The notes beneath the pieces are model-generated. The model did not search any database and was not told the origin of the DNA. It saw only the letters and a list, made by a program, of their open reading frames with translations. The position numbers and the translations under genes were made by a program. Positions 41,663 through 57,675 of a stretch of DNA of 64,000 nucleotides are shown here, piece by piece. How positions within the stretch are numbered: the first letter of the stretch is position 1; each line of letters begins with the position of its first letter. Where the stretch lies: assembly GCA_007376485.1 (NCBI GenBank), contig VMGJ01000003.1, positions 17,252 to 81,251 of the forward strand, written 5' to 3'. Origin of the DNA: Parcubacteria group bacterium Licking1014_17 (lineage in GTDB: Bacteria > Patescibacteriota > Minisyncoccia > 2-02-FULL-40-12 > IGHO2-01-FULL-4-A).

Positions 41663-43411
41663 TTATTCGGCAAATTCTATACTAATATCTTTCGCGTCGG
41701 TCAGGGAAAAATAATAATTGGCGGTTTTCTTGTCGCCAAGACCCGAGTACGCCTTGCCTAAAATCAGCAAAACATCCCCATCCCTGGATTCTGCCTTAAT
41801 TTCACTGCCAATAAAAGAGATGGCTTCTTTCGGTTTGCCGGAATTAATTAGGCTTAAAGCGTATACTTTTGTCCGGTATAAACTCGGTTCTTTATGATAT
41901 AAATCCCCGAACAATTCCGCCGCTTCGCCGTATTTTTTCTGGAACATCAGGAGGCGGGCAAGATTCCATTCCGCCGTCTGGTATTCGGGATTAATCTCAA
42001 ACGCTTTTTTGTAATAAGATATGGCGTCGCCGATTCTGCCCTCATGGGCGGCTAACGCGCCTACGACGCTCAAAGTCGGCAAATGCTCGGGGTAAATTGA
42101 ATACGCCTGAATGGCTAAAGGATTGGCTTTATCCCACCGGTTGATTTTCATGTATTCCCGGGAAAGAAGCGCCATCGCATGAACGCTATTTGGCGACTGC
42201 GCCACGGCGCTTTCAAATAAGGTCACATTATTTAACCAATCATTATTGCGATTCACAGTAATAATGACATAAATAATACAAATAAGCCCCAAAAAAGGAT
42301 ATGAAAGATATCTGACCCATTTCTTCCGGGTAATATAAACAATGGTGGTGGCGGTTATAACGGCGATGCCTGCCGATGAAGCATAAAACATCCTTTCGGC
42401 CATTATTGTGCCGATAGGCAAAACGAAATTGGAAACTATAAAATAAAAAGCCAATAAAAGCGCCGCCCCCAGGCCCAGGGCGGTTTTTTTCGTCCGGTCC
42501 CCAAAAATCAGCAAAAGTAATCCGGCAAAAATAAGTAGGCCTAATATAACATAGAGATTAAAAAAATTATTAAGAACCGGAATTTGGTTGTAAGAATAAT
42601 CCGACGAGAGGTGGAATGGAATAAATGTTTTATAGATATAAAGAAGCATTATTTTTAAAGCCGTGAACACGCGCGCCGGCAAAGCCAAAGACGCCAGCGG
42701 GTTATAAACAAAAGCAACCTTAACCGAAAAAATATATTCCTTGAGCGCTATGTACCGCAGAATAAAATAAAGCGCTACCGCTCCCCAATACGGCGCTAAT
42801 TTGTAAAAAACTTCTTTTATGTTTTTGCCCTGACGGATCCACAGCCACCAGACGGCCACCGCTATCAGCCCCAGGCCGCTTTCTTTGGAAAGCATTCCCA
42901 ACAGAAAAAATACCGCCCCCGTCCAATATTTTTCTTTATCTAAAAACAACAGGCTTAAAAGCGAGAAAAATAAGATAAGAACATCCGCCCTACCGGAAAT
43001 GTATGTGACCCCCTCGGTATGTATGGGCATGACAGCGAATAAAATAGAAGATAGATAAGCCAGGCGTTCATCTGAAAACAATTTCCGAGCCAGGACGAAA
43101 ATCAAAAAAATATTCAAGCCGTGAATAATTATATTAACTACGTGGAAGCCGGCCGGATTTGAACCAAATAAATAATTAAAAGCGTAGGAGACCAGGGTGA
43201 AGGGCCTGTAAAGACCAGATTCCGGCTGGTTATAAAATGGTTTGAAAATAAGAGTGGGAATTGAACCTAAACTTCTAATATCCTGGTTTTTTTCTATGGA
43301 TGAATAATCATCAAGAACAAAACCGCCCCCTATGCCATTGCCAAATAAAATAAAGGCCAAAACTATGGCTCCCGTGCATATCAGTAATAGTTTTTTTCTG
43401 TCGGATTTCAT
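41663..43411 (-). CDS. PMT/ArnT-like GT-C membrane glycosyltransferase with C-terminal TPR repeats
   Basis: The N-terminal membrane domain carries a DDYSSIEKN...GLYRPFT loop. The C-terminal ~180 aa show TPR-like repeats (AIQAYSIYPEH..., YKKAFEINPEY..., LARLLMFQKKYGEAAELF). Confidence 0.6.
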   Translation of the reverse strand: MKSDRKKLLLICTGAIVLAFILFGNGIGGGFVLDDYSSIEKNQDIRSLGSIPTLIFKPFYNQPESGLYRPFTLVSYAFNYLFGSNPAGFHVVNIIIHGLNIFLIFVLARKLFSDERLAYLSSILFAVMPIHTEGVTYISGRADVLILFFSLLSLLFLDKEKYWTGAVFFLLGMLSKESGLGLIAVAVWWLWIRQGKNIKEVFYKLAPYWGAVALYFILRYIALKEYIFSVKVAFVYNPLASLALPARVFTALKIMLLYIYKTFIPFHLSSDYSYNQIPVLNNFFNLYVILGLLIFAGLLLLIFGDRTKKTALGLGAALLLAFYFIVSNFVLPIGTIMAERMFYASSAGIAVITATTIVYITRKKWVRYLSYPFLGLICIIYVIITVNRNNDWLNNVTLFESAVAQSPNSVHAMALLSREYMKINRWDKANPLAIQAYSIYPEHLPTLSVVGALAAHEGRIGDAISYYKKAFEINPEYQTAEWNLARLLMFQKKYGEAAELFGDLYHKEPSLYRTKVYALSLINSGKPKEAISFIGSEIKAESRDGDVLLILGKAYSGLGDKKTANYYFSLTDAKDISIEFAE

Positions 43412-43461
43412 TTTGGAATTGGCGCTTCCAAACCAAGGAATTATGTGATATTTTACATTAT

Positions 43462-44676
43462 ATGGGCTTAATTAGCAAATTGCCGGAACAAAATGTTGGC
43501 ATGAAAAAAAGGGTGCTTTTTATTGTAACGGTATCCGAGTGGGGCGGTGCCCAACAGTTTTTATTCAAGCTTATTCGGGGTTTATCCGGAAAAAATTTGG
43601 AATTTTTGGTGGCTGTGGGGAACGACGGGGACGGAACTTTTTACAATAAACTTGCCGGCATGATTAATGTCGTGACTTTAAAACAGCTAAAAAGAAATAT
43701 CAGTCCTGTCAGCGACATAAGGGCTCTTTGGGAAATCAAAAATCTGATTGAGCACTGGGAGCCGGACACGGTTTTTCTGAACAGCTCCATAGCGGGCTTC
43801 ATCGGTTCGGCGGCAGTCAGATTTTTGGTAAAGTCCCCCAAGCCCAGAGTTATCTATCGCATCGGCGGATGGGTTTTCAACGACCCCAAGCCAAAATGGG
43901 AACGATGGCTGTATATCTTGCTTGAAAAAATAAGCTCGCGCTGGAAAGACGTAATTGTCGTCAATAATCTGCCTGATTACAGACAAGCCGATAAATACGG
44001 GATTAAACCGCGTGAGAAACTGGAGTTGGTTTATAACGGCATTGATCCCTATACTTTAGACCTTCTCCCAAAAGAAGAAGCCCGTGGATTGATTCTTGAC
44101 CGCATCGCGAAAAAAACGCCCGCGGCTTACAACCCCGCCTATATTGTCGGGACAATAGCCAATTTTTATAAGACCAAGGGTCTTGAATACCTGGTCAGAA
44201 GCGCGAAATTGCTGCTTGATAAAATTAGAGAAAGAGATACCGGACTGAAAATTCTCTATGTAATAATCGGCGACGGCGAAGAGAGGATGAATCTGGAAAA
44301 AACGATAAAGGAGCTGAATCTCAAAGATAATGTCTTTTTATTCGGCAGAGTTGAAAACGCGCACCGTTACCTGCCGGCATTCGATGTTTTTGTTTTGCCG
44401 TCATTAAAAGAGGGTCATCCTTGGGCGCTTATTGAAGCAATGGCGGCGAAAATCCCCGCGGTTGTAACTTCCGTTGGGGCAAATATTGATATTATCGAAA
44501 ACGGGAAAAACGGGCTGTTAGTGCCCCCGGGAAATTCCGAAGCTCTCGCGGAAGCCGTTGAATTAATGCTCTTGAACGAACATTTAAGATTAAAAGTGGC
44601 TATCGGAGCCCATCAGACGATAGTCCTGAATTTCGACCTCAATAAAATGGTCTCAAGAATCGAATCCTTATTGTAG
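43462..44676 (+). CDS. GT4-family glycosyltransferase (probable true start at the MKKRVLFIV methionine, 43501)
   Basis: EGHPWALIEAMAAKIPAVVTSVGANIDIIENGKNGLLVP motif. Only plus-strand gene in this part of the locus; it diverges from the upstream operon. Confidence 0.7.
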   Translation: MGLISKLPEQNVGMKKRVLFIVTVSEWGGAQQFLFKLIRGLSGKNLEFLVAVGNDGDGTFYNKLAGMINVVTLKQLKRNISPVSDIRALWEIKNLIEHWEPDTVFLNSSIAGFIGSAAVRFLVKSPKPRVIYRIGGWVFNDPKPKWERWLYILLEKISSRWKDVIVVNNLPDYRQADKYGIKPREKLELVYNGIDPYTLDLLPKEEARGLILDRIAKKTPAAYNPAYIVGTIANFYKTKGLEYLVRSAKLLLDKIRERDTGLKILYVIIGDGEERMNLEKTIKELNLKDNVFLFGRVENAHRYLPAFDVFVLPSLKEGHPWALIEAMAAKIPAVVTSVGANIDIIENGKNGLLVPPGNSEALAEAVELMLLNEHLRLKVAIGAHQTIVLNFDLNKMVSRIESLL

Positions 44677-44677
44677 T

Positions 44678-45256
44678 CTAATAAGCAATACTAATTATCG
44701 TTTCGCCGGAGCATTGGGATTCGAATATTTTCAAGTCGCCGTTCACAAACTTGCCGTAAGTAACACGCGCGGTAAGAGAATATTGTTTATAGGGCGCAAT
44801 ATCCTTTTTCATGGTGGCGGTAATATCGTGCTCGCCATCGGGTATTTTCAGGCCTGAAAATATATTCGGACCGACATCAAAGTCCGCTCTGGGTTTAATG
44901 TCCCAGTAAACAAGCCTGCTCGGATGGTCTATATTTTTATAACTTATTTTCGCGTTCGTGCTCTGATAAGTATTTGGGGATATGTACGTAATAATGCCCG
45001 AAATCGAGCAGATTGCCGCGGGAAGATTGCCAATCATTGTATTGACGGGAACGGTCGGCATTGGTCTCGGGGATGTTGGGGCTGGCGAAGGACTCTTTGA
45101 GTCCGGCTTGGGCGGCGTACTGAATGAGATTATTGCTGATGGGTTCGGCGATTCCTCGGCAGGATTTTGTTCTTCTTTTGAAAAATAGGCTGCAATAATC
45201 AAGAAAACTCCCACTATCAAAACTAATAACCAAAATATTTTAATTCTGTTGCTCAT
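44678..45256 (-). CDS. signal-anchored secreted protein with Pro/Ser-rich linker, unknown function
   Basis: N-terminal hydrophobic helix. The PNPSAIISFSTPPKPDSKSPSPAPTSPRPMPT low-complexity linker is followed by a ~120-aa globular region. Confidence 0.5.
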   Translation of the reverse strand: MSNRIKIFWLLVLIVGVFLIIAAYFSKEEQNPAEESPNPSAIISFSTPPKPDSKSPSPAPTSPRPMPTVPVNTMIGNLPAAICSISGIITYISPNTYQSTNAKISYKNIDHPSRLVYWDIKPRADFDVGPNIFSGLKIPDGEHDITATMKKDIAPYKQYSLTARVTYGKFVNGDLKIFESQCSGETIISIAY

Positions 45257-45305
45257 AGCTTATTTAATACACAAAAAACATCAAAATACAAGCCGCCCCC
45301 CAACC

Positions 45306-45332
45306 AAAAACCGCCTTTCGGCGGTTTTTGGT
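45306..45332. terminator. bidirectional rho-independent terminator (copy 1)
   Basis: Perfect hairpin AAAACCGCC-tttc-GGCGGTTTT flanked by A- and T-tracts, immediately 3' of the 705-aa gene. Confidence 0.7.
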
Positions 45333-45368
45333 TTGCATAACCCCGTGTTGAGGTTATGGCGCCTATGC

Positions 45369-47486
45369 TTACAGCTTCGAGAATGTTGGACCGTTCATCG
45401 GGAGGGTTCTTAATATGCCGGCCGTTGAGCCCGTAGCTTGGTTACCAGACGTCCAATTGATTAAACCATTTTGATTATCTCTCAATGCCAACTGAAAGAA
45501 ATCTCTCCTATGGGGAAACCCCGAAAAATTAATTTCAATCCGATACGTTCTGGAACTTCCGGCGCTGATTTCAATATCGTTGCCCGGCGGCAAAAAATCC
45601 AGGATTAGCGGCGCATAAACATTGGGATTGTCCCCGGCTCCTCTTATCGTATCAACGCTTTTGATAGTGCCGTCACTCGCATCATAGGTGGTAGCGACCA
45701 AATCAGTCGCCGCAGAATCACCGGAAGCCACAGCGTCAAAAACAATCGAGCCCGCCGGCAATGAACTGTTATCAAGCCATAATACCGAGTCTGGCGCGCC
45801 CATTGCCGTTATCGTAAACTTAATAACATCATTGGTGTTAACGGGTTCATAGCCGCTGGTCGGTACCATATGAAATTCCGGATAAACCTGGTAAACATAT
45901 ATGTCATTGCTTTTTACGTCATTTATACCCGGAGAGGCGCCATTAAGAACCTGGCCTGAAATTTCGCCAACCGCCCGAAAACTGTCGGTAGTTGAACCTT
46001 TATAATTATCGGAGAAATCAATGGAAAAAAACTTATTATTGGTCGCACCCTGCGATTTGGTTTTGAGATCGGCTTTAACCAATAATTCAGCGGAGGAGTC
46101 CTTGGGTATGTAAGGTCTTGAGTCGCCGGTAAAGGCAAAAATAGCGACACCGCTCGAGTCCGGCATGGCATTTTGGGTCAACTCCTGGCCACTTTTGTTT
46201 TTATAAACAATAGTCGTGTTCGCTACATTGCCGGCAAAATTGATCTTCTCATTAGCGTCCAGCGGCGTGAGTGTTACGCGCTCGATAAAAAAAGCGTCGT
46301 TGCCGGAGGTCACTCTGAATCTGCTGAATTCCGTACCTGTCTGTCCCCAGAACTTAGCCCCGCGCGTTGGCGTCATGGGTGATTGTGAGATATTAAGGAT
46401 TCCAGAACTACCCACAGTTACAATTATCTTTGGGTTAGTAATCCCATTGGGCGGTGCGTCATATGATGCGTGTACTACTCCCCCGACATCATCCGTACCC
46501 GTAATATCCGTGGTAGATTCGATATCAAAGGATAGTGAATCGCTGGAACCAGAAGTGGCGTTTGATGATATATCCCCTTTTACTAATAACCTTTTCGTCG
46601 TACCAGCAGAGATAGTCCAATTGCACGCGCTAAACTGGATAGTGCTGACTGACAAGCTAAGGTTATTAGCCGTTATTATGCAATCCAAAGGCTTACTGGT
46701 ATCGCCTTCAAAAAGCCGAATGGCTGTTATCCTATCGCCTATTGATAAGCCATCATCATTTTGGGGCAGGCTTAGGGATTTCGCGAAAATCATTCCATCA
46801 TCCGAAATATAGCCGGTAAGTTTTATGTCGGTAACATTTACACTGGTACTATCCACGGCGGTAAAGTTTACGCCAAGCATTTCCACGTTGGTGGCCCCTT
46901 TTGCGTAGATTCCGGACTTGGGGTTATCCGCGGGAGTTAGAATTAGCGGACCGCTTAAAACGGGATTTTTCCTAACGACCTCCACTTTATTTACATAGAG
47001 AATCGGCTGGGAAAGTACCGAAGAGCCGGCCAGCAGGCGTATGGTCATTTTATGCCTGCCATCGGCAAAACTTACGCTCTGGCTGTATTTTTTCCACGTA
47101 GCGTTATTATCCACGGTGAAGGTCCGGTAGTTTCTCCCGTCAACTGACAATGCCATTTTAGGCCATTGCTTCAGGGTAGTCCCGGTAGGCTCACCCTCTG
47201 CATAAATATCAACGCTGTAACTCGCCGTGCTTTCAAAATCAAAAGTTTGGGACATCCAACTACTGCCTTTCATCATCACCGTCCCCGAGGCGGTTGATTG
47301 ACATTTAACATACCCGCTTTTTGATTCAATAAATTTGCAACCGCTGACTATGGTTGATGCGTCTTCGGCTGGTATTTGAATCAGCGCCAATTGTCTGCCG
47401 GGTATGTCGGTAAATCCGATAAACAAAAGAAACGCGGCAATAATAACCGCATAACCCGTAATTATAAGAAAATTTTTCTTAAACAT
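45369..47486 (-). CDS. large secreted/cell-surface protein (paralog of 47664..51317), beta-rich Thr/Ser/Gly/Asn-rich
   Basis: N-terminal signal anchor. Long collinear blocks are shared with the 1217-aa neighbour: AKFWGQTGTEFSRFR, SRPYIPKDSSAELLVKADLKTKS, FTITAMG. Both share the C-terminal motif LPMNGPTFSKL. Confidence 0.6.
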   Translation of the reverse strand: MFKKNFLIITGYAVIIAAFLLFIGFTDIPGRQLALIQIPAEDASTIVSGCKFIESKSGYVKCQSTASGTVMMKGSSWMSQTFDFESTASYSVDIYAEGEPTGTTLKQWPKMALSVDGRNYRTFTVDNNATWKKYSQSVSFADGRHKMTIRLLAGSSVLSQPILYVNKVEVVRKNPVLSGPLILTPADNPKSGIYAKGATNVEMLGVNFTAVDSTSVNVTDIKLTGYISDDGMIFAKSLSLPQNDDGLSIGDRITAIRLFEGDTSKPLDCIITANNLSLSVSTIQFSACNWTISAGTTKRLLVKGDISSNATSGSSDSLSFDIESTTDITGTDDVGGVVHASYDAPPNGITNPKIIVTVGSSGILNISQSPMTPTRGAKFWGQTGTEFSRFRVTSGNDAFFIERVTLTPLDANEKINFAGNVANTTIVYKNKSGQELTQNAMPDSSGVAIFAFTGDSRPYIPKDSSAELLVKADLKTKSQGATNNKFFSIDFSDNYKGSTTDSFRAVGEISGQVLNGASPGINDVKSNDIYVYQVYPEFHMVPTSGYEPVNTNDVIKFTITAMGAPDSVLWLDNSSLPAGSIVFDAVASGDSAATDLVATTYDASDGTIKSVDTIRGAGDNPNVYAPLILDFLPPGNDIEISAGSSRTYRIEINFSGFPHRRDFFQLALRDNQNGLINWTSGNQATGSTAGILRTLPMNGPTFSKL

Positions 47487-47600
47487 AAGTGTAACTTTTG
47501 GCCGGCAAGGCGGTTTTTATGCTACGTATCGCCGGCAAATTAGTTGTATGCCACTAATTATATATTAAAAAATAAAAAACTTATTCACAGATGGCAAACC

Positions 47601-47627
47601 AAAAACCGCCTTTCGGCGGTTTTTGGT
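47601..47627. terminator. bidirectional rho-independent terminator (copy 2)
   Basis: Same hairpin, 3' of the 1217-aa gene. Part of a ~110-bp near-identical duplicated block (45304-45414 / 47599-47699). Confidence 0.7.
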
Positions 47628-47663
47628 TTGCATAACCCCGTGTTGAGGTTATGGCGCCTATGC

Positions 47664-50600
47664 TTATAGCTTCGAGAGCGTTGGTCCGTTCATCGGGAGC
47701 AAGCGCAGCGTGCTGGTCGTTGAAGCAGTGTCGGCATCCGCAAGCGAACCGGCTGAATCAGCAACCCAGTTAATCAAGCCGTTTACGTCATCGCGCAAGA
47801 TCAATTGGAAGTAGTCTGATTTGTCATTGAAGCCGGAGAATCCAACTTCAATGCGGAATGTCTTGGATGTGCCACCCGAGATTTCAACGTCTTTGCCGGG
47901 CGACCCGAAGTCCAAAGTCAGCGACGCATAGTAAGACGGACTGTCGCCAACCGCGGAAATCGTGTCCGAACTGATAACCGAACCGTCGGCCATGTCATAG
48001 GTCGTAGCCGTCAGGTTTGTCGTTGTCGTATCACCCGAAGCGACGGCTTCAAACTTGATTGAGCCGGAACCAGTAGCAAGGTTGTCGAAGTACAGCTTGG
48101 AATCGGAAAGACCCATGGCTGTAATCGTGAACTTCAGCACGTCCTTGGTACCCAAAGGCTCGCCGGCGGAGATAGCCACCTGGTCAAGCTTTGGAAACAC
48201 ACGGTAGACGTACATATTGTTGCCTTGCTTGGCGGCAGCCGCGGCATCAATGATACCGGTTGACGCACCATCAATAACTTGGCTTGAGCCGGCGCCAATC
48301 GCTCTGAAACCGTTGGCGGTTGAACCGTTGTAGGTCTTAGAGAAGTCGATTGAGAAGGCAACGTTGTTGGTCGCGCCTGACGACTTGGTCTTCAGGTCCG
48401 CCTTCACAATAAGGTCGGCGCTCGAGTCCTTAGGAATATAAGGCCTGCTGGTGCCGGCAAACGCGAAGGAGACCGAACCAGCCGAGTTAGGCGAAGCGCT
48501 CTGGGTCAGAAGGTTACCGAGAGCATCGGTGTAAGTCACCGAAATGTTATTCACATTATTAACCTCGTTGGTTGATTCACCCGAAGCGCTGGCAATCAAC
48601 GTGAAGCGTTCAATGTAGAAAGCCTCATTCGTAGAAGTCAGCCTGAATCTGCTGAATTCGGTGCCGGTCTGGCCCCAATACTTAGCTTCTTGAGACGGGG
48701 TGGATGGCGATAGCGAAATCGTCATGGAGCCGGTATTGTTGACCCTTATTTTCACAGTCGGCGATGCGGCGGCGCCGTTCGGAAGAGTCGCGTCCGCGTT
48801 CACCGTCTGGCTGGAATCGTCAAGGGCTGTTATATCGGTCGTAGCGGCGACATTAAACGCTATGCCGTCATACGTACTGGACGGAGTGTTCGTCGAGAGG
48901 TCGCCCTTAACCAAGAGTTTCTTGGTCGCGCCGGCAGGAATAGACCAGTTGCAGTTGTTGAACTGAATGGTGCTTGTTGACGAACTTAGATTGTTTGCAA
49001 CCATGACGCAGGATAACGCTGTCCCTGCATCGCCGTCGTACAGCTTAACTCCCGACACTAGATTGCCGACTGACATTGTGGCATCGGCGTCGGATAGGCC
49101 CAGCGACTTGGCGAAGGTCGAGTTGTCATCCGAAACATAACCGGTAAGAGTTATATCGGTGACTTTCAGACTTGAACCAAGAGCCGCCTTGAAGGTCAAG
49201 CCAAGCAAATCAACATTGGCAGTTCCCTTAACATAGGTCGAGCTCTTTGGGTCGCCGGCAAGACCGAGCGTCAATGACGATGTTGAAACCGTCATAGCAT
49301 TGCCGCTTATATCACCGGACGGACTAAAGTCAGCCAAAACGACGGCAGTGTTGGTGCCGCTGTACTTGGCAACAGTCAAGTCGCCGGATGAAGTAGCAAG
49401 AGTGCCGTAGCCGTAGAGAATCGCTTTGATAATACTGTTGTTGGCTATGGCAAGAGTTCCGCTGTTAGATGTCTTGAGGTCGGCGGTTACCTGAAGGGTC
49501 TTGGTCTCTCCGGTAAGCATTTCCATGGTATCAGTGAAATCCTTATAGAGACCGTTCTTGGAACCCGGGCAGGCCGCTGTTATAGCGATAAAGGCAGAAC
49601 CGTCGGAAGGACCGACAAAAACCGTACCCGTGCTCTTGTCTTTAACCTTGATGTCTTCAAGGTCGGTAACGTTTTGCGCCGCGCTGTAGTCATCATAAGT
49701 GCCATCGCCGTTGATGTCCGTGCAGATAACGATTCTGTGCTTTTTTAGCTCAATGGCCTTAGCGGCATTGATTGTGTATTCTAACAGCACATTATCCTGC
49801 GAATTGTCGGCAATATTGGAAGCCGAAGGACCGGAAAAACTCAAAGTGATTACTCCGCCTTGCAGTGTTATGGCATCAGCATCGGATGCGGTCTCAAGCC
49901 CGTTATTGGCCGAAGATAAAGCCATACCAAAACCATATTGATCGCCAACAACATAAACATCAGAATTCAGCTCAAAGTAGAGCTCAACTGTCTCGGCTTT
50001 CTTGCCGCCCAAGTTTCCGTAAACCTGGAATATTTTGTTGTTGCCTTTCTCAATCTTCACGCCCGAACCGAGGTCAAACACCACATAGCCGTTTGACATA
50101 TAACCATCGGCTACTTTCGAACCGCCGGTTTCAAGCGCTAGGCCGGTGATGTCGGCATCCTTTACGGTGCCGTTGTTAATTAATCTCAATCCCCTTACCC
50201 AGCCGGCTTCCGTGGCAGTCGTAATCTTGAATTCGGAAAGTTTGACATGCTGGGCTCCGACATTCGGATTGGAAAGCGAGCCCGATTTGGCAACAGTAAG
50301 AGTGCCACCGTCGCTTCCCGACATTGTGAAGTTAGCGCCAACAATCGGGAAATATCCGCCAAGCGTGCCCGAGGACAAAATTACGTCACCGGACGAAACA
50401 ATATCGAAGTGATTAACATTTCCCCCGGTCGCACTGAGGTCGGCTTTAACTGTAAGGTCTTTTGTGCCATTAACCGAGATGCCCAAGCTGACAAAAGTAA
50501 CCTTACCTGTTGACGAAGACAAACTTTTACCTGAAGTCAGACGGTTGGAACCATCATAGATGTAAACGTTGTCAATATCATCTACGGAACCAGCACCATT

Positions 50601-51317
50601 GCGAGTGATTGTAATGCTGGAAACAGTGCCGGTACCGGTCAATCTGATCTTGGTAAAAGCGATGCCTTGGGCGTTCTTGGTAACGGTTTGACCAGCCGGA
50701 GTGTCGGGAGATAAAGCAACATTAACATTCCCCGCTACCGGCGGTATTGTTGAACCCGGTGTTCTTGTGTAAACGGGAATCTGCGACAAAGAGGTATAAG
50801 GAGTTGAGCTTTTCGGGTACCAACTTTCCTCCCTTGTATTTATGCAGAATACTTTCTTGAAGAAATCGGGGTCTTGCGCCACCGCGTCGCCGCCAGTCAT
50901 CTGGACGGGGTGAAATACGCCGGTATCTTCGCCGGTTACTTCAACCGCCCAAACTTGCTGGGCATTGGTTTCACAATTTCGATACAACCCAGAGGTCGGG
51001 AAAGCATCTCTGACCGTGGGGGTAACATTCTTAACATTGGCAAAACCGCCCAAGTGGGCGTACATGCCAAATATGGCAGGATTCAAAAACAATCTCTTGA
51101 ATCCCAAGTCGTTGACAATATAGACGTCCGGATCGCTGGAGCCGGCAGCACTGATAGTGTTGCCCTCTGTTAATCCGTAGTCGCTCGGTTTGGCTGCGCC
51201 AGCATTTCTGGCTGTCACAAAGATCAAACCGACGGCGAGCACAACGACAAACGCCGCCGCTATAAACGGTAATGATTTTCTTAAATTACTCATGTGTATT
51301 ATTATTTCCATTCTCAT
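47664..51317 (-). CDS. very large secreted/cell-surface protein (1217 aa; probable true start at the MSNLRKSLPFIAAAFVV methionine, 51293)
   Basis: Signal-peptide-like N-terminus. Repetitive beta-rich T/S/G/N composition. C-terminal third is paralogous to the 705-aa protein and ends LPMNGPTLSKL. Confidence 0.6.
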   Translation of the reverse strand: MRMEIIIHMSNLRKSLPFIAAAFVVVLAVGLIFVTARNAGAAKPSDYGLTEGNTISAAGSSDPDVYIVNDLGFKRLFLNPAIFGMYAHLGGFANVKNVTPTVRDAFPTSGLYRNCETNAQQVWAVEVTGEDTGVFHPVQMTGGDAVAQDPDFFKKVFCINTREESWYPKSSTPYTSLSQIPVYTRTPGSTIPPVAGNVNVALSPDTPAGQTVTKNAQGIAFTKIRLTGTGTVSSITITRNGAGSVDDIDNVYIYDGSNRLTSGKSLSSSTGKVTFVSLGISVNGTKDLTVKADLSATGGNVNHFDIVSSGDVILSSGTLGGYFPIVGANFTMSGSDGGTLTVAKSGSLSNPNVGAQHVKLSEFKITTATEAGWVRGLRLINNGTVKDADITGLALETGGSKVADGYMSNGYVVFDLGSGVKIEKGNNKIFQVYGNLGGKKAETVELYFELNSDVYVVGDQYGFGMALSSANNGLETASDADAITLQGGVITLSFSGPSASNIADNSQDNVLLEYTINAAKAIELKKHRIVICTDINGDGTYDDYSAAQNVTDLEDIKVKDKSTGTVFVGPSDGSAFIAITAACPGSKNGLYKDFTDTMEMLTGETKTLQVTADLKTSNSGTLAIANNSIIKAILYGYGTLATSSGDLTVAKYSGTNTAVVLADFSPSGDISGNAMTVSTSSLTLGLAGDPKSSTYVKGTANVDLLGLTFKAALGSSLKVTDITLTGYVSDDNSTFAKSLGLSDADATMSVGNLVSGVKLYDGDAGTALSCVMVANNLSSSTSTIQFNNCNWSIPAGATKKLLVKGDLSTNTPSSTYDGIAFNVAATTDITALDDSSQTVNADATLPNGAAASPTVKIRVNNTGSMTISLSPSTPSQEAKYWGQTGTEFSRFRLTSTNEAFYIERFTLIASASGESTNEVNNVNNISVTYTDALGNLLTQSASPNSAGSVSFAFAGTSRPYIPKDSSADLIVKADLKTKSSGATNNVAFSIDFSKTYNGSTANGFRAIGAGSSQVIDGASTGIIDAAAAAKQGNNMYVYRVFPKLDQVAISAGEPLGTKDVLKFTITAMGLSDSKLYFDNLATGSGSIKFEAVASGDTTTTNLTATTYDMADGSVISSDTISAVGDSPSYYASLTLDFGSPGKDVEISGGTSKTFRIEVGFSGFNDKSDYFQLILRDDVNGLINWVADSAGSLADADTASTTSTLRLLPMNGPTLSKL

Positions 51318-51959
51318 CGCCAGCAGGATTTATAATCCTGATGCCGACAAGAGATTAATCCCTAACGCCTTTACGGGTTCTCTCTGTTATGTTCAGTTGC
51401 AAACCCGGAGTCTGGCCGCGTTATCGCTGGAAGCTGTTTTAATAGTTTTTATATTGCAGCTGCCAGTCTTGCCCCGACCGCTTAAGACTCTTATTTGGGA
51501 ACCTTATAAATTAACTCCTGGCATTCCAAACAACATTCATCAGATTTTAAGCCATTTTCTAGCCAGCCTCGAATATCGGTTTTTAGCCCATATCCGGGGC
51601 AGACTAGTAAAAAACTCACCTCTTTTAGGCTACTAAAAACAATCCAATAATCGCGTAAATTATAGATTTTTTCATCTTTTTACCCGTTTGCTCTTGCAGA
51701 TAATATCAAAACTCTTCCGCGCAGTCAACCAAAAAGACACGACTGTCCGCGGCTAATATTATCATTTACCTAACTACAAACAGTGACGTGTAAGGGTTTC
51801 AAACCTTACACCACACATACTATATTGGCCCCGAAACTGCTATTTATTATAACAACTAACAAATAGCTTTAAAATACTTTCAAGCCCAAAATTGTGGATA
51901 ATTGCAAATAATCACATAATCGAGGCACTGCTAATGACGTCGGGGTACCCGTAAAGATA

Positions 51960-52096
51960 GCGACATAAATGACAAAATTACTATGTCATAGTGACAAAAA
52001 CATTTATGTCACGATATATGACACAGTGACACAATTAGATTGCGACATAAATGACAAATTGACGTGTCACTATGACATAATTGTCATTTATGTCGC
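51960..52096. promoter_or_regulatory. dense array of TGTCA/GCGACA-type repeats (3 copies of a 16-17-bp unit plus three TGTCA-Nx-TGACA palindromes)
   Basis: GCGACATAAATGACAA at 51960-51975 and 52042-52057, and its reverse complement at 52081-52096. TGTCAtagTGACA at 51985-51997. TGTCAcgatataTGACA at 52006-52022. TGTCActaTGACA at 52065-52077. Confidence 0.55.
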
Positions 52097-52608
52097 TATA
52101 GGTTGTCTATCTTCCATATTTTGTCACCTTTGACAAATATGATATTGACGCTTATATCGGAAGAAACTTTATATATGTAAGTGGCGCTCTTGTCGTCCTC
52201 CTTTTTTAAGAGCCACCCGGCTCTCGCCTTTTCAAATTCTGCTATAAGTTTATCCGTTATCCCCTTGTCTTCGCTGGCTATAAACGTTTTTTCCCAGCTT
52301 TCCTGCTTGGATGTCACAAAATAACGGCTCGCAAGTTTAAAATCCTTGCTCTTCAAAGCATCCATAAATAGGTCATAAGTTTCCTCCGGCGTAGCGCCAC
52401 CGATGATATCACCGCTGGCAATAATCGGTTCAGAACCATTTTCTCCCGCGGTTTTATCGCCCTGTATTTTTTTCAATATTCCGGAGAAGTTCAACATACC
52501 CAAAATTGCCGATAGAGCAACGACTCCAAAAATAATGGTGATTATCCAATTTTTACGGAAAAACCCATTGCTCCTTCTGGAGTCGCCAGATATTGCCGGG
52601 TTGTTCAT
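52096..52608 (-). CDS. small membrane-anchored protein (N-terminal TM + ~130-aa extracytoplasmic domain), unknown function
   Basis: 170-aa ORF. Hydrophobic helix WIITIIFGVVALSAILGML. Shares an operon with the upstream regulator gene. Confidence 0.5.
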   Translation of the reverse strand: MNNPAISGDSRRSNGFFRKNWIITIIFGVVALSAILGMLNFSGILKKIQGDKTAGENGSEPIIASGDIIGGATPEETYDLFMDALKSKDFKLASRYFVTSKQESWEKTFIASEDKGITDKLIAEFEKARAGWLLKKEDDKSATYIYKVSSDISVNIIFVKGDKIWKIDNL

Positions 52609-52632
52609 CGATCTAATTTTAACATTACGGAA

Positions 52633-53265
52633 TTAACTCGGCAATCGCGGGATGAAGTAAAACACGCTTTTACCCTGAACTTCCTTCAAAATCACGTTAT
52701 TTTCCAGTAATTCGGAGATTTTTCTCTGGATTGTTCTCCTGCTTATATTTTTAAATTCGGTGTAAACTTCCGAGTTCTGTACCCTCCCTTTTTTAGAAAT
52801 AAAATCAATTATTTTATCCTGCAAATCGCTGGGGGCCCGCCCTCTTTTTCTATTTGCCATACTTTTTTTTATCGTCTTAACCGGTTTATTTTCAGAGATA
52901 TCTTTTCTGGCATCAATTTTTTTCGCTTTTCTCGGAGTAATATTCTTGGCCGGAGAGGATATTACAAGCTTCAAAAGCAATAAATCTTTTTCAATAATCA
53001 TTGTTTGGGACAGGGTTTCGGAAAATAAATGCCGCATTATATACATAACCGATAGGCAGTGATCTAGATAATAACCGATTGATTTCGAGGAAACTTCGTC
53101 AATTTTACCGTTTTCGGTAACAAAAATTGCCGAAATATCGGCAATTTTTCTGGATTCCGTAAAACAAATTTCGCTAAAAAACTTATCAGGCAAGTTTTTG
53201 GCTAAAGTCTCAAGCTCGACGGCCAGATTAATGACAAGGCGCAAGGATGAGTTGTTATCGCTCAT
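52633..53265 (-). CDS. DNA-binding regulator with C-terminal winged-helix HTH (start uncertain: 53265 ATG or 53319 GTG)
   Basis: C-terminal IIDFISKKGRVQNSEVYTEFKNISRRTIQRKISELLENNVILKEVQGKSVFYFIP is a clear wHTH. It is preceded by a basic linker. The N-terminal ~120 aa are of unknown fold. The gene is flanked on both sides by TGTCGC/TGTCA repeat arrays. Confidence 0.55.
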   Translation of the reverse strand: MSDNNSSLRLVINLAVELETLAKNLPDKFFSEICFTESRKIADISAIFVTENGKIDEVSSKSIGYYLDHCLSVMYIMRHLFSETLSQTMIIEKDLLLLKLVISSPAKNITPRKAKKIDARKDISENKPVKTIKKSMANRKRGRAPSDLQDKIIDFISKKGRVQNSEVYTEFKNISRRTIQRKISELLENNVILKEVQGKSVFYFIPRLPS

Positions 53266-53343
53266 TACATAGACATATAGCACAACGCGACACCGCGTCA
53301 ATGCTTGTCGCAATAACACCCATTGTGTCGCGATGTCATTATT

Positions 53344-53398
53344 TGTCGCTATTATGTCGCGATATTGTCGCTATGTTGTCGCGATTCTGTCACTATCT
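53344..53398. promoter_or_regulatory. five tandem 11-bp direct repeats (iteron-like; consensus TGTCGC(G/T)AT(A/T)n)
   Basis: TGTCGC(or TGTCAC) recurs at 53344, 53355, 53366, 53377 and 53388 with exact 11-bp phasing. Two further copies lie at 53306 and 53326. Located between the htrA stop and the regulator start. Confidence 0.6.
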
Positions 53399-54664
53399 GG
53401 AGCTTAATGTCACAGTGACATTCATTTGGCTACCTTGTCGCAGAACTAATAGTGTCACAGTATCACCGCTGCTGTATTTTTGTATTAAGGCGCTAAGAGG
53501 ATTATCGGCTGTCACCTTCGTGCCATTAACTTCAAGAATTATGTCGTTCTCCTTAATGCCGGCTTTATCCGCCGGAGAACCGGGTGCCACGGCTATTTCA
53601 GTCGCGTTCGGGCCCTTGATGACCAAAGCTCCATAATCCACGGCCAGATTATTGCTGTCTTTGATATCCGGGGTAATCATCACATATCTTACGCCAAGGT
53701 AGGCATAAGTAATTTTGCCGGTTTTTGCCACCTGTTGTATATCTTTTTTGGCAATATTAATGGGTGTCGCAAAGCCGATATTCTGAGCCCCGCTGACAAT
53801 AGCCGTGTTTATCCCCATTACTTCTCCGTTCAAGTTGAGCAGCGGACCGCCGGAATTTCCGGGATTAATAGCGGCATCTGTCTGGATTAGCTGCGACAAG
53901 CTTTCCGAAGAACCGCCGGCGCTATCGGATGCCGTTATGGAACGGGAAAGTCCTGAAACCACGCCCCTGGACACGGTGTTGGAAAATTGCCCCAGCGCGT
54001 TTCCGATAGCTATGGCGGTTTGTCCTATCTGAACCTTGGTTGAATCGGCTAATGGCAGGGCTTTTAAGCCGGATACCGGTATTTTAATCACGGCGACATC
54101 ATTAACGGAATCCATGGCTAAAATTTGGGCGGTAAACTCCCTGCCGTCGCTCAAAATAACCGTGAAAGCGGCGCCGTCGATATTGACAACGTGCCTGTTG
54201 GTTAAAATCATACCGTCGGAACTCACGACAAATCCGGTTCCAGCGGCTACCTGCTGTTTTTGTGTTTGGGGCTGTGTCGGAGTTTGGGGCTGATTTTGGC
54301 ACTGATTGCCGAAAAACTGTCTGAAGAATGGGTCAGAACAAAGGTCTTGGAGTGGATAAGTTCCATTTTGGACTACCTGCAGATCTTTTGTTGCGATTAT
54401 GCTGACAACCGAAGGGCTTGACTGCTTAACAACATTTATAATTTTTGCCTCATCGCTTGTGCCGGGTACATAAGCTGGCGGTTGCTGGGTTGCCAAAGAA
54501 GAAGCCGGACCCGAACTCTGAATGTTGTTAGGAATTGTCATTAGAGCCGCTTCGTATCCGAAAATGGCTCCAAAAATCCCCGATATTATAATGCTGGCCA
54601 CTATTGCGCTTATAACAGTATTTTTTTTAACAAAGTTTGCTATTTTTTCTATTATTTTCTCCAT
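53393..54664 (-). CDS. htrA: HtrA/DegP-family periplasmic serine endoprotease with PDZ domain
   Basis: N-terminal TM anchor. The trypsin fold shows TNRHVV (His), a D, and the GNSGGPLLNLNGEVMGINTAI catalytic Ser motif. C-terminal PDZ-like domain. Confidence 0.85.
   Translation of the reverse strand: MEKIIEKIANFVKKNTVISAIVASIIISGIFGAIFGYEAALMTIPNNIQSSGPASSLATQQPPAYVPGTSDEAKIINVVKQSSPSVVSIIATKDLQVVQNGTYPLQDLCSDPFFRQFFGNQCQNQPQTPTQPQTQKQQVAAGTGFVVSSDGMILTNRHVVNIDGAAFTVILSDGREFTAQILAMDSVNDVAVIKIPVSGLKALPLADSTKVQIGQTAIAIGNALGQFSNTVSRGVVSGLSRSITASDSAGGSSESLSQLIQTDAAINPGNSGGPLLNLNGEVMGINTAIVSGAQNIGFATPINIAKKDIQQVAKTGKITYAYLGVRYVMITPDIKDSNNLAVDYGALVIKGPNATEIAVAPGSPADKAGIKENDIILEVNGTKVTADNPLSALIQKYSSGDTVTLLVLRQGSQMNVTVTLSSR
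53407..53421. promoter_or_regulatory. 15-bp perfect palindrome ATGTCACaGTGACAT (same half-site family), inside the 3' end of htrA
   Basis: Direct reading; the half-site TGTCAC matches the repeat family at 51960-52096. Confidence 0.45.
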
Positions 54665-54809
54665 AGATAATGGCTTTTTTAACCAAAAAGCCGGTTATTT
54701 AACCAGTAATCGGCCCTATGTATTACATTATATAATATAACGAAAAAAGAAATCAAAAAGTTTTGGGGGCGGAGCGAACCCCGCTCAAAATTTTCTGTGA
54801 AAATTTTGA

Positions 54810-54901
54810 GCAGGATACTTGAATTAGTCCGAACCGCTTTCGCCGCCTGCGGCGGCGAGGAAAACCCCCCGCGAAATTCTGAAAATGCGGCGAAGCCGCG
54901 C
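54810..54901. repeat. inverted repeat R1, ~92 bp, G+C-rich; partner at 55891-55982
   Basis: The reverse complement of 54810-54901 aligns with 55891-55982. The inner ~60 bp are identical and the outer ~30 bp about 85% identical. The flanking 12-bp-stem hairpin at 54783-54811 is not repeated. Confidence 0.8.
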
Positions 54902-54943
54902 CGATGACAATTTCAAGTTTTTCTTTTGGCGGCAAATTCTTTG

Positions 54944-54989
54944 TTCTTTGAATTATAAAAAAGAGGGGGTCGCTTTCGCAAACCCCCTC
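54944..54989 (-). terminator. rho-independent terminator for the 55013..55675 gene
   Basis: On the minus strand: GAGGGGGT-loop-ACCCCCTC hairpin followed by CTTTTTTAT. Confidence 0.6.
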
Positions 54990-55012
54990 GGTTGAGAAGA
55001 TAGATCTCCGCT

Positions 55013-55675
55013 TCATTGAATACGGCCGGTGAGAAATCCTTTTGCGTTCTCATCCCAGAGAATCTTTCGCGGAGTGGTTTTGGTGACACCAGCTTGCGTC
55101 ACCACACCATCAAGTCGTCCGTTGAAGAAAATCGGAACTCCTTCTCGTAGAGCAGACGAACTCACAGTGTCATTCGCTCGAACGCCGTTGAGAAGCTGGC
55201 TCACACCCCGATTGACGAGATGAATTCCGCCTTTCTCGATCCAGGTTCCGCAGTCATAGGTATGAAGCGAAATCGGTTCGAGAACTTCCTCGCGCATGAG
55301 GTTCTCGCCGGTGATGACGAGAAAATCGGCATCGCTCGGCTGAATGGGAACCTGCTCGGTAACTGGTCCACGAAATAGGCGGTTCCTCTTTACTTCCTGG
55401 AAGCCAGGATGACGCACCGCCGATCCAAATGCGATGACCGCCACGATGTCATCGAGTGGAACGAGGGTGTGATTCACTTTCCATCCCGTCACCAACTTGT
55501 AGAGGTCGGCGAGGTTGATGTAGAAATCTGTGATTGCAGAATTTTGGAAGAATCCTCCGCCCGGATGAACGTATGCTTTTCCGTTCGGGAAATACAGTCT
55601 TCCAAGGCGTGTTGCCTCGAAATACTTCGTGAAATCATCCATGTGCAGAACGGTCTCAACTGCTGTGCTTTTCAT
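55013..55675 (-). CDS. putative Pol-beta-superfamily nucleotidyltransferase, horizontally acquired cargo gene (the ORF extends to 55714, but the start at 55675 is preceded by AAAGGAG)
   Basis: AFGSAVRHPG...PSDADFLVITG fits the hG[GS]x(n)Dh[DE]h nucleotidyltransferase motif (compare kanamycin NTase GSLARGE...SDIDLVVI), with an insertion. Codon usage and G+C are clearly higher than in flanking genes. A strong SD lies 7 nt upstream of the second ATG. Confidence 0.45.
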   Translation of the reverse strand: MKSTAVETVLHMDDFTKYFEATRLGRLYFPNGKAYVHPGGGFFQNSAITDFYINLADLYKLVTGWKVNHTLVPLDDIVAVIAFGSAVRHPGFQEVKRNRLFRGPVTEQVPIQPSDADFLVITGENLMREEVLEPISLHTYDCGTWIEKGGIHLVNRGVSQLLNGVRANDTVSSSALREGVPIFFNGRLDGVVTQAGVTKTTPRKILWDENAKGFLTGRIQ

Positions 55676-55749
55676 CGGTTTTCTCCTTTCAAGGAACTTG
55701 TATTTAGGCCACATTGCCTACGCTTGTAAGAATATAGCATATATGATGC

Positions 55750-57675
55750 TTGAAGTCAATAGTAAACAAAAAATCAGCATCTTTGCTGAAAATTATCTTA
55801 AAAAATCCTTATGAAAATTTTTCTTTTCTGCTTCTACAAAATATGGTTCGAGCCGATGTTTTTAACGGGTTCTTTTGCGGTTTTGATTCGTGCGGCTCCG
55901 CCGCCTTTCCGGATTTTCGCGGGGGGACTTCCTCGCCGCCGCAGGCGGCGAAAGCGGTTCGGACTAATTCAAGTATCCTGCACCACGTTGGAAAAGTCAA
56001 TGCCTCGCCCCGCCTTCGGCGGGTCTCGGCGACCAAATCGTACGGATTTTTCGGGGTAAAAAGAAATTCCCGATTCCGGATTGAAGCTCAACTTGTTGAG
56101 CTCAAAGAATTTGCCGCCAAAGAAAAACTTGAAATTGTCGCTTCCTTTCAGGAAGCCAAAACCGCAAAAGAACCCGGGCGAATTAAATTCGCAGAAATGT
56201 TGTCATTGATTGAGAGAGGGAAAGCAGACGGGATAATTTCATGGCATCCGGATCGTCTCGCAAGAAATTCTGTGGATGGCGGAAAGATTATTCACTTTGT
56301 TGATCGCGGCTTGATTCGTTCCCTCAAATTTCCCTGCTTCTGGTTTGAACCGACACCACAAGGATTATTCATGCTGAACATTGCTTTCGGACAAAGCAAG
56401 TATTTTGTAGACAATTTGCGAGAGAATGTAAAAAGAGGTTTGCGGCAGAAAATCAGAAATGGAGTATGGCCAAGTTGGGCTCCAATTGGCTACACTAACA
56501 ACCCCAAAACGCGCGGTATTGATATTGATAGCGACAAAGCCCCTAAGGTAAAGAAATTGTTTGAAATGTATGCCACCGGAGAATACTCTCTCAACATCCT
56601 CGCAAATTGGTGTGAGAAAAAGAAACTGCTCACTAACGCCGGAAACAAAATATCATTAAGCAATGTTCAGCATATTCTCCAAAACCCTTTCTACATTGGG
56701 TTGATGAGATACAAAGGGGAAATTTTTGAGGGAACACACGAACCGTTAATCTCAAAGAAACTTTTTGATAAATGTCAGGAAGTTATGGTAAAGCGTGGGA
56801 AAGTGAGGCCAGACAGGAAACACTATTTTGCTTTTCTTGGCCTGATGAAATGCGCCTCGTGTGGTTGTTCAATTACGGCTCAATACGCAAAAGGAAATGG
56901 TGGTATTTACACTTACTATCGGTGTACAAAAAAGCGAGGCAAGTGCCAAGAAAAGTATCTTGATGAAAAACAGCTTTTAACACAAATTAAAAACTTCCTG
57001 CAAAAAGTTTCTTTGTCGAGCCAAGACACCGAGAAAGTTTTGGCGGCATTAGGCACAGAAGAAACACAAGCGAAACAACAAGCACAAAGTGAGGCGGTAA
57101 ATCTAAAAGAGCAGTTAGCTCAAATTGAAACAAAGCTCCAGAAATTGCTGGACGTATATCTCGATGATGCACTTACTCAAAAAGAATACGCCACCAAAAA
57201 AGATGTCCTCATTTCCCAAAAGGTCGAGTTAAACGAAAAAATCACCGACTTTGAGCAAAAAGGGGTGTCTTGGCTCGAACCGGCTCGTGAGTTTGTAAAA
57301 TCCTTGAATCAAGCCGCTAATTTACTTGAATCAGAAAATCTTTCCGAAATGACAACATTTCTGAAAAACATCGGCTCGAACCATATTTTACGGAATCGGG
57401 AATTTCTTTTTACCCCGAAAAATCCGTACGATTTGGTCGCCGAGACCCGCCGAAGGCGGGGCGAGGCATTGACTTTTCCAACGTGGTGGTCGTGTTCTGC
57501 CATTGAACCACACCCGCGTTGCCAAGGGGGTTTCGGCGAAACTTCGCCGAAACCCCCTTGGCTGAATTTTTATTTTTTATTTATCCAGTCGGTAACGGAC
57601 TGCCAGAATTTACCCCATGCGTCCGGTTGCCCGGCGCTTTTTTCAATCACGCTCGTTTCTTTATTTTTTGAGTAA
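55750..57675 (+). CDS. large serine recombinase (resolvase/invertase-type catalytic domain + recombinase domain + zinc ribbon + coiled coil). True start and stop are uncertain because the ORF runs through repeats S, R1', R2 and R2'
   Basis: WHPDRLARN (the catalytic DRLxR of serine recombinases), GTHEPLISKKLF, the zinc ribbon CASCGCSITAQY...YYRCTKKRGKC and the coiled-coil C-terminus all match large serine recombinases (A118/Bxb1/TnpX-like). The first in-frame ATG/GTG/TTG before the catalytic region is at 55843 (inside S) or 55750. There is no canonical start just upstream of the putative catalytic Ser (KRNS at aa 104-107 or RVS at aa 91-93). Confidence 0.75.
   Translation: MKSIVNKKSASLLKIILKNPYENFSFLLLQNMVRADVFNGFFCGFDSCGSAAFPDFRGGTSSPPQAAKAVRTNSSILHHVGKVNASPRLRRVSATKSYGFFGVKRNSRFRIEAQLVELKEFAAKEKLEIVASFQEAKTAKEPGRIKFAEMLSLIERGKADGIISWHPDRLARNSVDGGKIIHFVDRGLIRSLKFPCFWFEPTPQGLFMLNIAFGQSKYFVDNLRENVKRGLRQKIRNGVWPSWAPIGYTNNPKTRGIDIDSDKAPKVKKLFEMYATGEYSLNILANWCEKKKLLTNAGNKISLSNVQHILQNPFYIGLMRYKGEIFEGTHEPLISKKLFDKCQEVMVKRGKVRPDRKHYFAFLGLMKCASCGCSITAQYAKGNGGIYTYYRCTKKRGKCQEKYLDEKQLLTQIKNFLQKVSLSSQDTEKVLAALGTEETQAKQQAQSEAVNLKEQLAQIETKLQKLLDVYLDDALTQKEYATKKDVLISQKVELNEKITDFEQKGVSWLEPAREFVKSLNQAANLLESENLSEMTTFLKNIGSNHILRNREFLFTPKNPYDLVAETRRRRGEALTFPTWWSCSAIEPHPRCQGGFGETSPKPPWLNFYFLFIQSVTDCQNLPHASGCPALFSITLVSLFFE
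55838..55863. repeat. 26-bp repeat S (AAAATATGGTTCGAGCCGATGTTTTT); inverted copy at 57364-57389
   Basis: Exact reverse-complement match. The left copy lies 27 bp outside R1'. The right copy abuts R2'. Confidence 0.75.
55891..55982. repeat. inverted repeat R1' (partner of 54810-54901), abutting R2
   Basis: See R1. The R1/R1' pair brackets the nucleotidyltransferase gene. Confidence 0.8.
55982..56079. repeat. inverted repeat R2, 98 bp; perfect inverted partner at 57391-57488
   Basis: The reverse complement of 57391-57488 is identical to 55982-56079 over the full 98 bp. The R2/R2' pair brackets the serine-recombinase core, and both copies lie inside the recombinase reading frame. Confidence 0.85.
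57364..57389. repeat. repeat S' (inverted copy of 55838-55863)
   Basis: Exact match in reverse complement. Confidence 0.75.
57391..57488. repeat. inverted repeat R2' (perfect partner of 55982-56079)
   Basis: See R2. Confidence 0.85.
57521..57583 (+). terminator. strong rho-independent terminator 3' of the recombinase gene
   Basis: 20-bp perfect stem GCCAAGGGGGTTTCGGCGAA-ac-TTCGCCGAAACCCCCTTGGC followed by TGAATTTTTATTTTTTATTT. Confidence 0.8.

Follow-up and report, generated by a model that had tools for sequence, protein, structure and literature searches.

A probable control region with repeat arrays and a DnaA-type box upstream of a giant envelope-protein gene of Parcubacteria

Organization of the locus

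The stretch of DNA analysed here, hereafter the window, comprises 64,000 nucleotides (nt) of contig VMGJ01000003.1 from Parcubacteria group bacterium Licking1014_17. At 51.3–52.1 kb it contains a 778-bp gap, free of open reading frames (ORFs), that separates the gene of a small membrane-anchored protein from that of a giant envelope protein. The genes around this region all lie on the minus strand (Table 1), with a winged-helix regulator gene before the membrane-protein gene and TPR, PMT_2 and GT4 glycosylation genes downstream of the giant gene. An earlier note, made from the letters of the sequence, had seen here either an iteron-type replication origin, possibly that of an integrated or ancestral plasmid or phage replicon, or a regulatory hub controlling the adjacent giant surface-protein genes. 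With moderate confidence, we read the gap as the upstream control region of the giant gene, placed at a chromosomal locus conserved in Parcubacteria and comprising an operator-like array, a promoter module with a DnaA box and a leader of ~550 nt. Our observations cover sequence anatomy, clustering statistics, exclusivity of the arrays, synteny, conservation of the box and of a stem-loop and, as a model, protein fold.

The portion at 51637-52096 is AT-rich, as had been noted, with a GC content of 35.4% against 41.5% for the whole window, and it was also correctly described as lacking a credible ORF, the longest in the gap having at most 54 amino acids. More than 380 Parcubacteria proteins align with the giant protein along its entire length at 45-52% identity; a Pfam scan of the giant protein found no recognised S-layer domain, and a literature search on S-layer proteins of Parcubacteria returned nothing relevant. 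Related loci were collected from genome and metagenome collections and from contigs carrying homologues of the giant protein. Loci from Yanofskybacteria, Paceibacteria, Taylorbacteria and Nomurabacteria share a conserved order of genes, often running from an S1C protease through the regulator, the small membrane protein and an ORF-free, AT-rich gap of ~0.5-1.4 kb to a protein of ~1200 amino acids followed by TPR, PMT_2 and GT4 genes. This synteny across Parcubacteria indicates that the module is chromosomal and old rather than a recent mobile replicon. Of the two readings offered earlier, the comparative evidence supports the regulatory hub for the adjacent giant surface-protein gene, given that the regulator/membrane pair, the ORF-free gap, a box before a promoter and the giant gene recur together in relatives.

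In the AlphaFold2 model of the regulator (predicted local distance difference test score, pLDDT, 85), a disordered basic linker joins a four-helix bundle (residues 4-103) to a C-terminal winged helix-turn-helix (wHTH) domain (147-204) for which the pLDDT exceeds 90. Pfam and NCBIfam gave weak HTH_11/DeoR matches only, and BlaI was the best profile match among solved sequences (E-value 2e-4). Foldseek searches against the PDB returned generic winged helices only, none at E≤0.001; the top match, AspA, is not significant (E 0.017, template modelling score 0.27 over the query). Over all these searches the regulator matched generic winged helices (BlaI, AspA, ArsR) only. The closest solved relatives, BlaI and AspA, are winged helices of the repressor or centromere type. 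The regulator family comprises ~90 representative clusters at E≤1e-3, mostly of 170-265 amino acids and mostly matched over nearly full length, and none is annotated. Some members of the family (for example P0004, P0008, P0011 and P0015) have, at columns ~100-140 of our alignment A1, an insertion of repeated short 'VAQ/IAQ/ILQ' motifs that separates helices 2 and 3 of the N-terminal bundle. The membrane protein has one transmembrane helix and an outside domain with a weak match to DUF4878 (NTF2-like); in relatives it carries the motifs WWRHW, TPEETFDLFI and LASKYF and is a conserved partner of the regulator.

Table 1. Genes and sequence features at the locus (window coordinates)
Feature	Position	Strand	Remarks
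htrA	54664..53393	minus	
Upstream half-site array	53288..53460	none	in and around the regulator promoter region; distal part within the htrA 3' end
Regulator gene, 210 amino acids	53265..52633	minus	NCBI call: 216 amino acids from GTG at 53283
Membrane-anchored protein gene, 170 amino acids	52608..52096	minus	TAG stop 52096-52098
Imperfect palindrome, 143 bp	51957..52099	none	13 RTGACA/TGTCAY half-sites
DnaA-type box TTATCCACA (gene-strand reading)	51893..51901	minus	608 nt upstream of the giant-gene ATG
Predicted promoter TTTAAA-16-TGtTATAAT, extended -10	51846..51873	minus	10/12 consensus positions
Hairpin GUGUAAGG-8 nt-CCUUACAC	51788..51811	minus	~30-50 nt into the predicted leader
Leader mini-ORF MKKSIIYAIIGLFLVA followed by stop	51625..51675	minus	GGGTAAAAAG before it
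Stem-loop directly before the ribosome-binding site of the giant gene	51312..51352	minus	counterpart of the conserved stem-loop of relatives
Giant envelope-protein gene, 1209 amino acids	51293..47664	minus	product secreted or anchored
Second large surface-protein gene, 705 amino acids	47486..45369	minus	

Half-site arrays on either side of the regulator and membrane-protein genes

The repeats that had first drawn attention to the region are present as described. Three copies of the 16-mer GCGACATAAATGACAA lie at 51960 (+), 52042 (+) and 52081-52096 (-) and nowhere else in the window, a copy number that no shuffled sequence reached. The three reported TGTCA-N3/7-TGACA palindromes are TGTCAtagTGACA (51984-51996), TGTCAcgatataTGACA (52007-52023) and TGTCActaTGACA (52065-52077). 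The half-site is indeed common to this cluster and to a second one beyond the regulator gene: across the 64 kb, TGTCR/YGACA is dense only at 51926-52150 and 53276-53475, where it reaches 11-13 occurrences per 150 bp over a background of ~0.6, the next densest place having 4.

The three 16-mer copies and the palindromes are nested arms of a single imperfect palindrome of 143 bp, centred at ~52028, whose arms match at 19/19, 15/15 and 15/18 positions. Its right arm overlaps the stop codon of the membrane-protein gene, where the palindrome starts on the gene strand, and an additional TGTCAC-ctt-TGACA pair lies within that gene at 52122-52135. The upstream array is of a different kind: phased direct repeats stand before the regulator, as opposed to a nested palindrome after the membrane-protein gene. 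It contains five TGTCGC/TGTCAC direct repeats with an exact spacing of 11 bp (53344-53392) and the palindrome TGTCACAGTGACA at 53408-53420. Repeated sites are found both over the promoter region of the regulator itself (53288-53460) and before its presumed target gene (51957-52135). The 3' end of htrA (53393-53470) carries the half-sites TGTCACAGTGACA, TGTCGC and GTGTCAC within its last 25 codons, which encode a protein terminus ending in TVTLLVLRQGSQMNVTVTLSSR.

Relatives possess arrays of 9-bp units, in direct and inverted copies, directly after the membrane-protein gene as in the window; in L023 the array follows the regulator gene and no membrane-protein gene was called there. The units vary among loci, being of the ATGACA type (ATGATGACA) in L003, L005, L007 and L008, where inverted arms span 16-27 bp, of the GTGACA type (GGTGACA) in L023, and of the GTGCCAA type in L013 and L014, which have seven direct and three inverted copies.

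Two further repeat clusters, a GTGACA array in L022 and a CCGACACC array in the giant gene of L004, were not taken as operator arrays, because they lie within coding sequence for Val-Thr-rich or Thr-Pro-rich linkers. The former, at 6680-6900 of L022, comprises nine GTGACA/TGTCAC hexamers in 200 bp in the Val-Thr-rich linker of an LTD-domain protein encoded directly after the regulator gene; these hexamers could be a binding array inside coding sequence or a by-product of Val-Thr codons.

The palindrome might alternatively act mainly as a nucleic-acid hairpin, either as a long RNA stem-loop at the 3' end of the regulator/membrane-protein transcript, where it could terminate transcription, stabilise the RNA or be cut by RNase III, or as a DNA cruciform, the half-sites being secondary. 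It starts exactly at the stop codon, and its calculated folding is strong both as RNA (-62.9 kcal/mol, z-score -10.7) and as DNA (-37.9 kcal/mol, z-score -8.2); relatives have inverted repeats of 16-27 bp with different sequences at the same spot. The 19-nt and 15-nt arms are moreover perfectly complementary, spacer bases included, which could reflect selection for a hairpin and counts against a primary role as an operator. This last point has another explanation that requires no selection for pairing, since loci of relatives have the entire 9-bp unit ATGATGACA in common. No U-tract follows the palindrome, and its half-site recurs in the 11-bp-phased direct array before the regulator gene, an arrangement that cannot form a hairpin. 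That phased array and the direct copies in relatives, seven of them in L013 and in L014, favour protein binding over a pure hairpin function. We hold a mainly structural role to be unlikely, although protein-binding and hairpin roles could coexist. An Rfam scan of the window and eight related loci found no family at gathering score, and sub-threshold matches to miRNA precursors at 51957-52100 were dismissed as artefacts of the long hairpin.

The outermost arms could also be viewed as 19-bp inverted repeats (51957-51975 and 52081-52099) that flank a 105-bp invertible promoter switch, an 'inverton' for phase variation of the surface protein, flipped by a nearby serine recombinase. Such a switch would call for perfect inverted repeats in front of the surface-protein gene and for a recombinase, and both are present, a large serine recombinase being encoded at 55750-57675. 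The segment between the repeats, however, is itself palindromic (the nested 15-nt and 18-nt arms), so its inversion would alter almost nothing; equivalent arrays occur in relatives without a recombinase, an independent assembly shows the segment unflipped at 100% identity, and the recombinase has inverted repeats of its own elsewhere. We give next to no weight to this explanation. The repeats in question are 90 bp long (54810-54899 and 55892-55981, 92% identity) and flank an ORF at 55013-55714 (-) together with the annotated 5' end of the recombinase gene, which is on the plus strand. The second public assembly, L019, matches the window at 100% identity over 42633-55849 and diverges 43 bp before the repeat, which suggests that the 90-bp-repeat region is a recombinase-associated mobile or invertible segment varying between populations.

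A DnaA-type box at a conserved position before the giant gene

The exact DnaA-box 9-mer reported in the gap is there: TGTGGATAA at 51893-51901 is the sole perfect DnaA 9-mer in the 64 kb. Taken by itself it is not significant, because ~0.5 such occurrences are expected by chance. On the gene strand the box stands 20 nt upstream of the -35 element (TTTAAA) of the predicted promoter and 41 nt before the -10 element, and transcription from this promoter would start near 51839.

In nine distinct relatives a perfect TTATCCACA in the orientation of the gene is found 520-670 nt before the ATG of the giant gene. Two boxes 63-67 bp apart are present in seven loci (L003, L005, L008, L013, L014, L020 and L021), a single box in L007 and L022, and in L023 the box, ATATCCACA, has one mismatch and lies 760 nt from the ATG. 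In 10/10 loci, L023 included, a TATAAT-like -10 element (mostly TATAAT itself) comes 30-32 nt after the first box, and in most of them a TTGTGn element lies ~9 nt past the box. The box of the window matches these conserved boxes in position and orientation. In five gap-less (type-B) loci (L002, L004, L009, L011 and L018), a TTGACA-17-TAnnnT promoter precedes the membrane-protein gene and is directly adjoined by one to three TGTGGATAA boxes, which stand in tandem at 11-12 bp if more than one is present; the giant gene comes directly next in L004, L009 and L011, and the contigs of L002 and L018 end before it.

A canonical DnaA 9-mer therefore holds a conserved position relative to promoter elements, as is characteristic of DnaA-box-regulated promoters. 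The flanks in relatives are highly diverged and the 9-mer is invariant, which points to a conserved binding protein. As the canonical 9-mer stays unchanged in divergent lineages, this protein would most likely be DnaA, acting as a transcription factor or held there as a titrated ligand. A literature search on DnaA boxes in Patescibacteria and the Candidate Phyla Radiation returned nothing relevant.

Two side observations concern these boxes. Several related genomes, among them those of L020 and L021 (~23.5 kb each), hold ~5 perfect TTATCCACA/TGTGGATAA 9-mers per 23.5 kb where ~0.2 are expected, some of them within genes; the genome of the window has 1 in 64 kb. Furthermore, a gene for a REP (repetitive extragenic palindrome)-associated tyrosine transposase (RAYT, IS200-like) directly follows the regulator gene in L002 (6187-6947), L004 (6206-7001) and L018 (1174-1900), and the tandem DnaA-type boxes come after this insertion in all three. 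REP-like hairpins (ACGACATCGCAAGTCGT or ACGTCATCGCAAGACGT) border the RAYT gene on both sides in L002 and L004, and in L018 only the copy on the side of the boxes was read.

A structured leader

The predicted leader of the giant gene in the window is 547 nt long and folds much more stably than shuffled sequence (z-score -4.9). The 8-bp hairpin GTGTAAGG/CCTTACAC of the earlier note exists but had been placed at 51784-51807, 4 nt away from its correct coordinates. Leaders of relatives share a third promoter-like element, a mini-ORF encoding MIFLN behind the ribosome-binding site AAGGGTAAAAAT, a terminator-like hairpin and a stem-loop before the ribosome-binding site of the giant gene, the last of which shows compensatory changes in 7/17 pairs. 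The mini-ORF of the window has the same ribosome-binding context as the conserved MIFLN mini-ORF.

Relation to replication origins

A low GC content (35%), repeat arrays, a perfect DnaA box and a neighbouring winged-helix gene would also suit a replication origin, whether oriC or that of an integrated iteron replicon, the repeats then acting as iterons, with the winged-helix protein for an initiator and the DnaA box for a helper site. The conservation of DnaA boxes at the locus in relatives and the presence of a large serine recombinase gene 3.6 kb away can be cited in its favour. Against it stands, first, the isolation of the box: within the 800-bp gap, a search for degenerate DnaA boxes found one perfect box and one with two mismatches, which is below the average density of the window and forms no cluster. 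Cumulative GC skew falls steadily through 52 kb to 64 kb without a turn (over the 64 kb of a 163-kb contig), and there is no switch of gene strand, the genes on either side of the locus sharing one strand. The skew at fourfold-degenerate sites to the left and right of the locus follows the coding strand, and is uninformative about an origin because nearly all genes lie on one strand.

Nor was a replication gene recognised in the sequences covered. The DnaA signature motif is absent from all frames of the 64-kb window, in which dnaN was not looked for. The window ORFs that were scanned with Pfam fall into glycosylation and envelope functions (mostly glycosyl-, methyl- and mannosyl-transferase genes), HtrA, LepA, serine recombinase or no match, and no DnaA or beta-clamp family appears in the Pfam lists for the genes lying up to 8-10 kb from the locus in L020-L023, four relatives in which several of these genes have no Pfam match. 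No initiator of the Rep type (WH1-WH2, two winged helices) was recognised in the regulator by Pfam, NCBIfam or Foldseek, and its AlphaFold2 fold has a single wHTH. In place of tandem iterons of 17-22 bp, the flagged cluster is a nested palindrome of 5-6-bp half-sites, and 11-bp direct repeats occur only at 53344-53392.

Searches of viral contigs and of phage and plasmid records found no relative of the regulator, which speaks against an integrated or ancestral plasmid or phage replicon, as does the chromosomal synteny; the second assembly lacks the recombinase junction and is 100% identical at the locus. The fixed distance of 30 nt between boxes and conserved -10 hexamers is, in addition, the geometry of a promoter. 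Together, the one box, the absence of a Rep fold and, within the 64 kb, of a skew turn, and the chromosomal setting lead us to set aside the earlier suggestion of an iteron-type origin, and we regard an origin of either kind at this place as very improbable.

Among the neighbouring features, a 103-bp direct repeat (45302-45404 and 47597-47699, 96% identity) spans the stop codons of both large surface-protein genes; each copy comprises ~35 nt of 3' coding sequence and ~65 nt downstream, and the repeat may be a shared C-terminal/terminator module.

Discussion

In the arrangement that we favour, a control region of the giant gene, the adjacent winged-helix regulator would be the parsimonious ligand of both arrays and might bind them cooperatively, controlling its own gene and modulating or insulating transcription into the giant gene. 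The membrane-anchored partner may relay an envelope signal to the regulator, for which its conserved cytosolic WWRHW tail is a possible route. The promoter at 51873-51846 would be tuned by DnaA or by another factor recognising TTATCCACA, and the box and promoter of the window would be the counterpart of the 'box, N30, TATAAT' modules, of which relatives have one or two equally far from the giant gene. A long, structured leader that includes the mini-ORF would set mRNA stability or translation of a very large envelope protein, probably abundant and glycosylated.

Which protein binds which element, where transcripts begin and end and which way regulation runs are inferred from the sequence, and several observations weigh against this reading. 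Most relatives have two boxes but the window only one, whose spacing to the -10 element exceeds theirs by 11 nt, or one helical turn. A profile (nhmmer) of the control regions of relatives aligns to the window in the box region only, with an E-value of 0.72; as it misses the leader of the window, homology of this control region rests on position and architecture, not sequence. Some relatives (types B and C) have no array at all. The recognition helix of the regulator, RTLKRKLSEL, is almost invariant, whereas the half-site of the arrays varies by lineage, and only the two residues preceding the helix co-vary with it, weakly (S/T-R/K with TGACA arrays, A-P with TGCCA arrays). The regulator might therefore bind the invariant box and not the arrays, and the near-invariant helix, taken together with the array-less loci, keeps a hairpin role of the palindrome (as an RNA 3' structure or a cruciform) alive as a rival to the operator function.

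The proposed control region resembles several known systems. With autoregulated winged-helix repressors (BlaI/MecI and their partners BlaR1/MecR1, and DeoR-type repressors with multi-operator looping) it shares the wHTH domain of the regulator, palindromic or repeated sites before both the regulator's own gene and a target gene, and a co-transcribed membrane protein with an outside domain. It differs in the modelled order of domains, the wHTH being C-terminal behind a four-helix bundle, and in having at least 13 half-sites per array, where binding would take place, rather than one or two dyads. The partner protein has no protease or sensor-kinase domain and shows the weak DUF4878 match only.

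DnaA boxes outside oriC regulate promoters or titrate DnaA at E. coli nrdAB and datA. In other bacteria, too, DnaA acts on transcription and is titrated by boxes that lie away from oriC (PMC3245932, PMC4447404), as exemplified by box clusters of B. subtilis (PMC3245932, PMC4447404) and by gidA of P. aeruginosa (PMC13438810), where the boxes act on promoters or titrate the protein. The likeness lies in the perfect TTATCCACA immediately upstream of promoter elements, be it single, paired or in tandem 11-12 bp apart; different here are the target, a giant envelope-protein gene in Parcubacteria, and the fixed position ~600 nt before the coding start. Iteron plasmid origins (RepA/RepE/pi) are comparable in their short, phased repeats, in a single DnaA box, in low GC and in the winged-helix gene next to them, but the present locus has no Rep fold or family, a palindrome in place of 17-22-bp tandem repeats, synteny across classes and no plasmid or phage relatives. 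In the systems of the centromere-binding proteins AspA of pNOB8, TubR and ParR/parC, repeats phased by 9-11 bp likewise stand beside the gene of a small DNA-binding protein, and AspA is the top Foldseek match of the regulator; that match is not significant, however, and the locus has no partition NTPase and a conserved chromosomal context.

Control regions of S-layer genes (Lactobacillus slpA, Brevibacillus cwp, Thermus slpA/SlrA) have tandem promoters and long, structured, stabilising 5' leaders. Our locus is similar in the two to three tandem promoter-like modules of relatives, the leader of ~550-600 nt with a stem-loop near the ribosome-binding site, and the very large, strongly conserved secreted protein encoded beside glycosylation genes. 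It is set apart by the lack of a recognised S-layer domain in the giant protein, and by the mini-ORF and the DnaA-type boxes, which are not known as features of the described leaders.

A broader proposal, which we put forward as no better than a doubtful possibility, is that across Parcubacteria DnaA binds conserved boxes 30 nt before the -10 element of promoters for the major envelope protein of ~1200 amino acids, and that the winged-helix/NTF2-like membrane pair, specific to its lineage, adds envelope feedback through co-evolving arrays. Gene regulation in the Candidate Phyla Radiation is, to our knowledge, almost wholly unexplored. The architecture described here is new for known kinds of element (operator arrays and DnaA-box promoters), in a lineage whose regulation is essentially unstudied. 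It provides a conserved and testable cis-regulatory layout before what is probably the main envelope protein, gives an uncharacterised regulator family of ~90 representative clusters an obvious candidate operator, and places a canonical DnaA 9-mer under strong constraint at a site unlike an origin. Should DnaA indeed occupy these boxes, replication initiation in ultra-small cells would be tied to surface synthesis or to DnaA titration, which would connect cell cycle and surface biogenesis in organisms whose regulatory repertoires are minimal.

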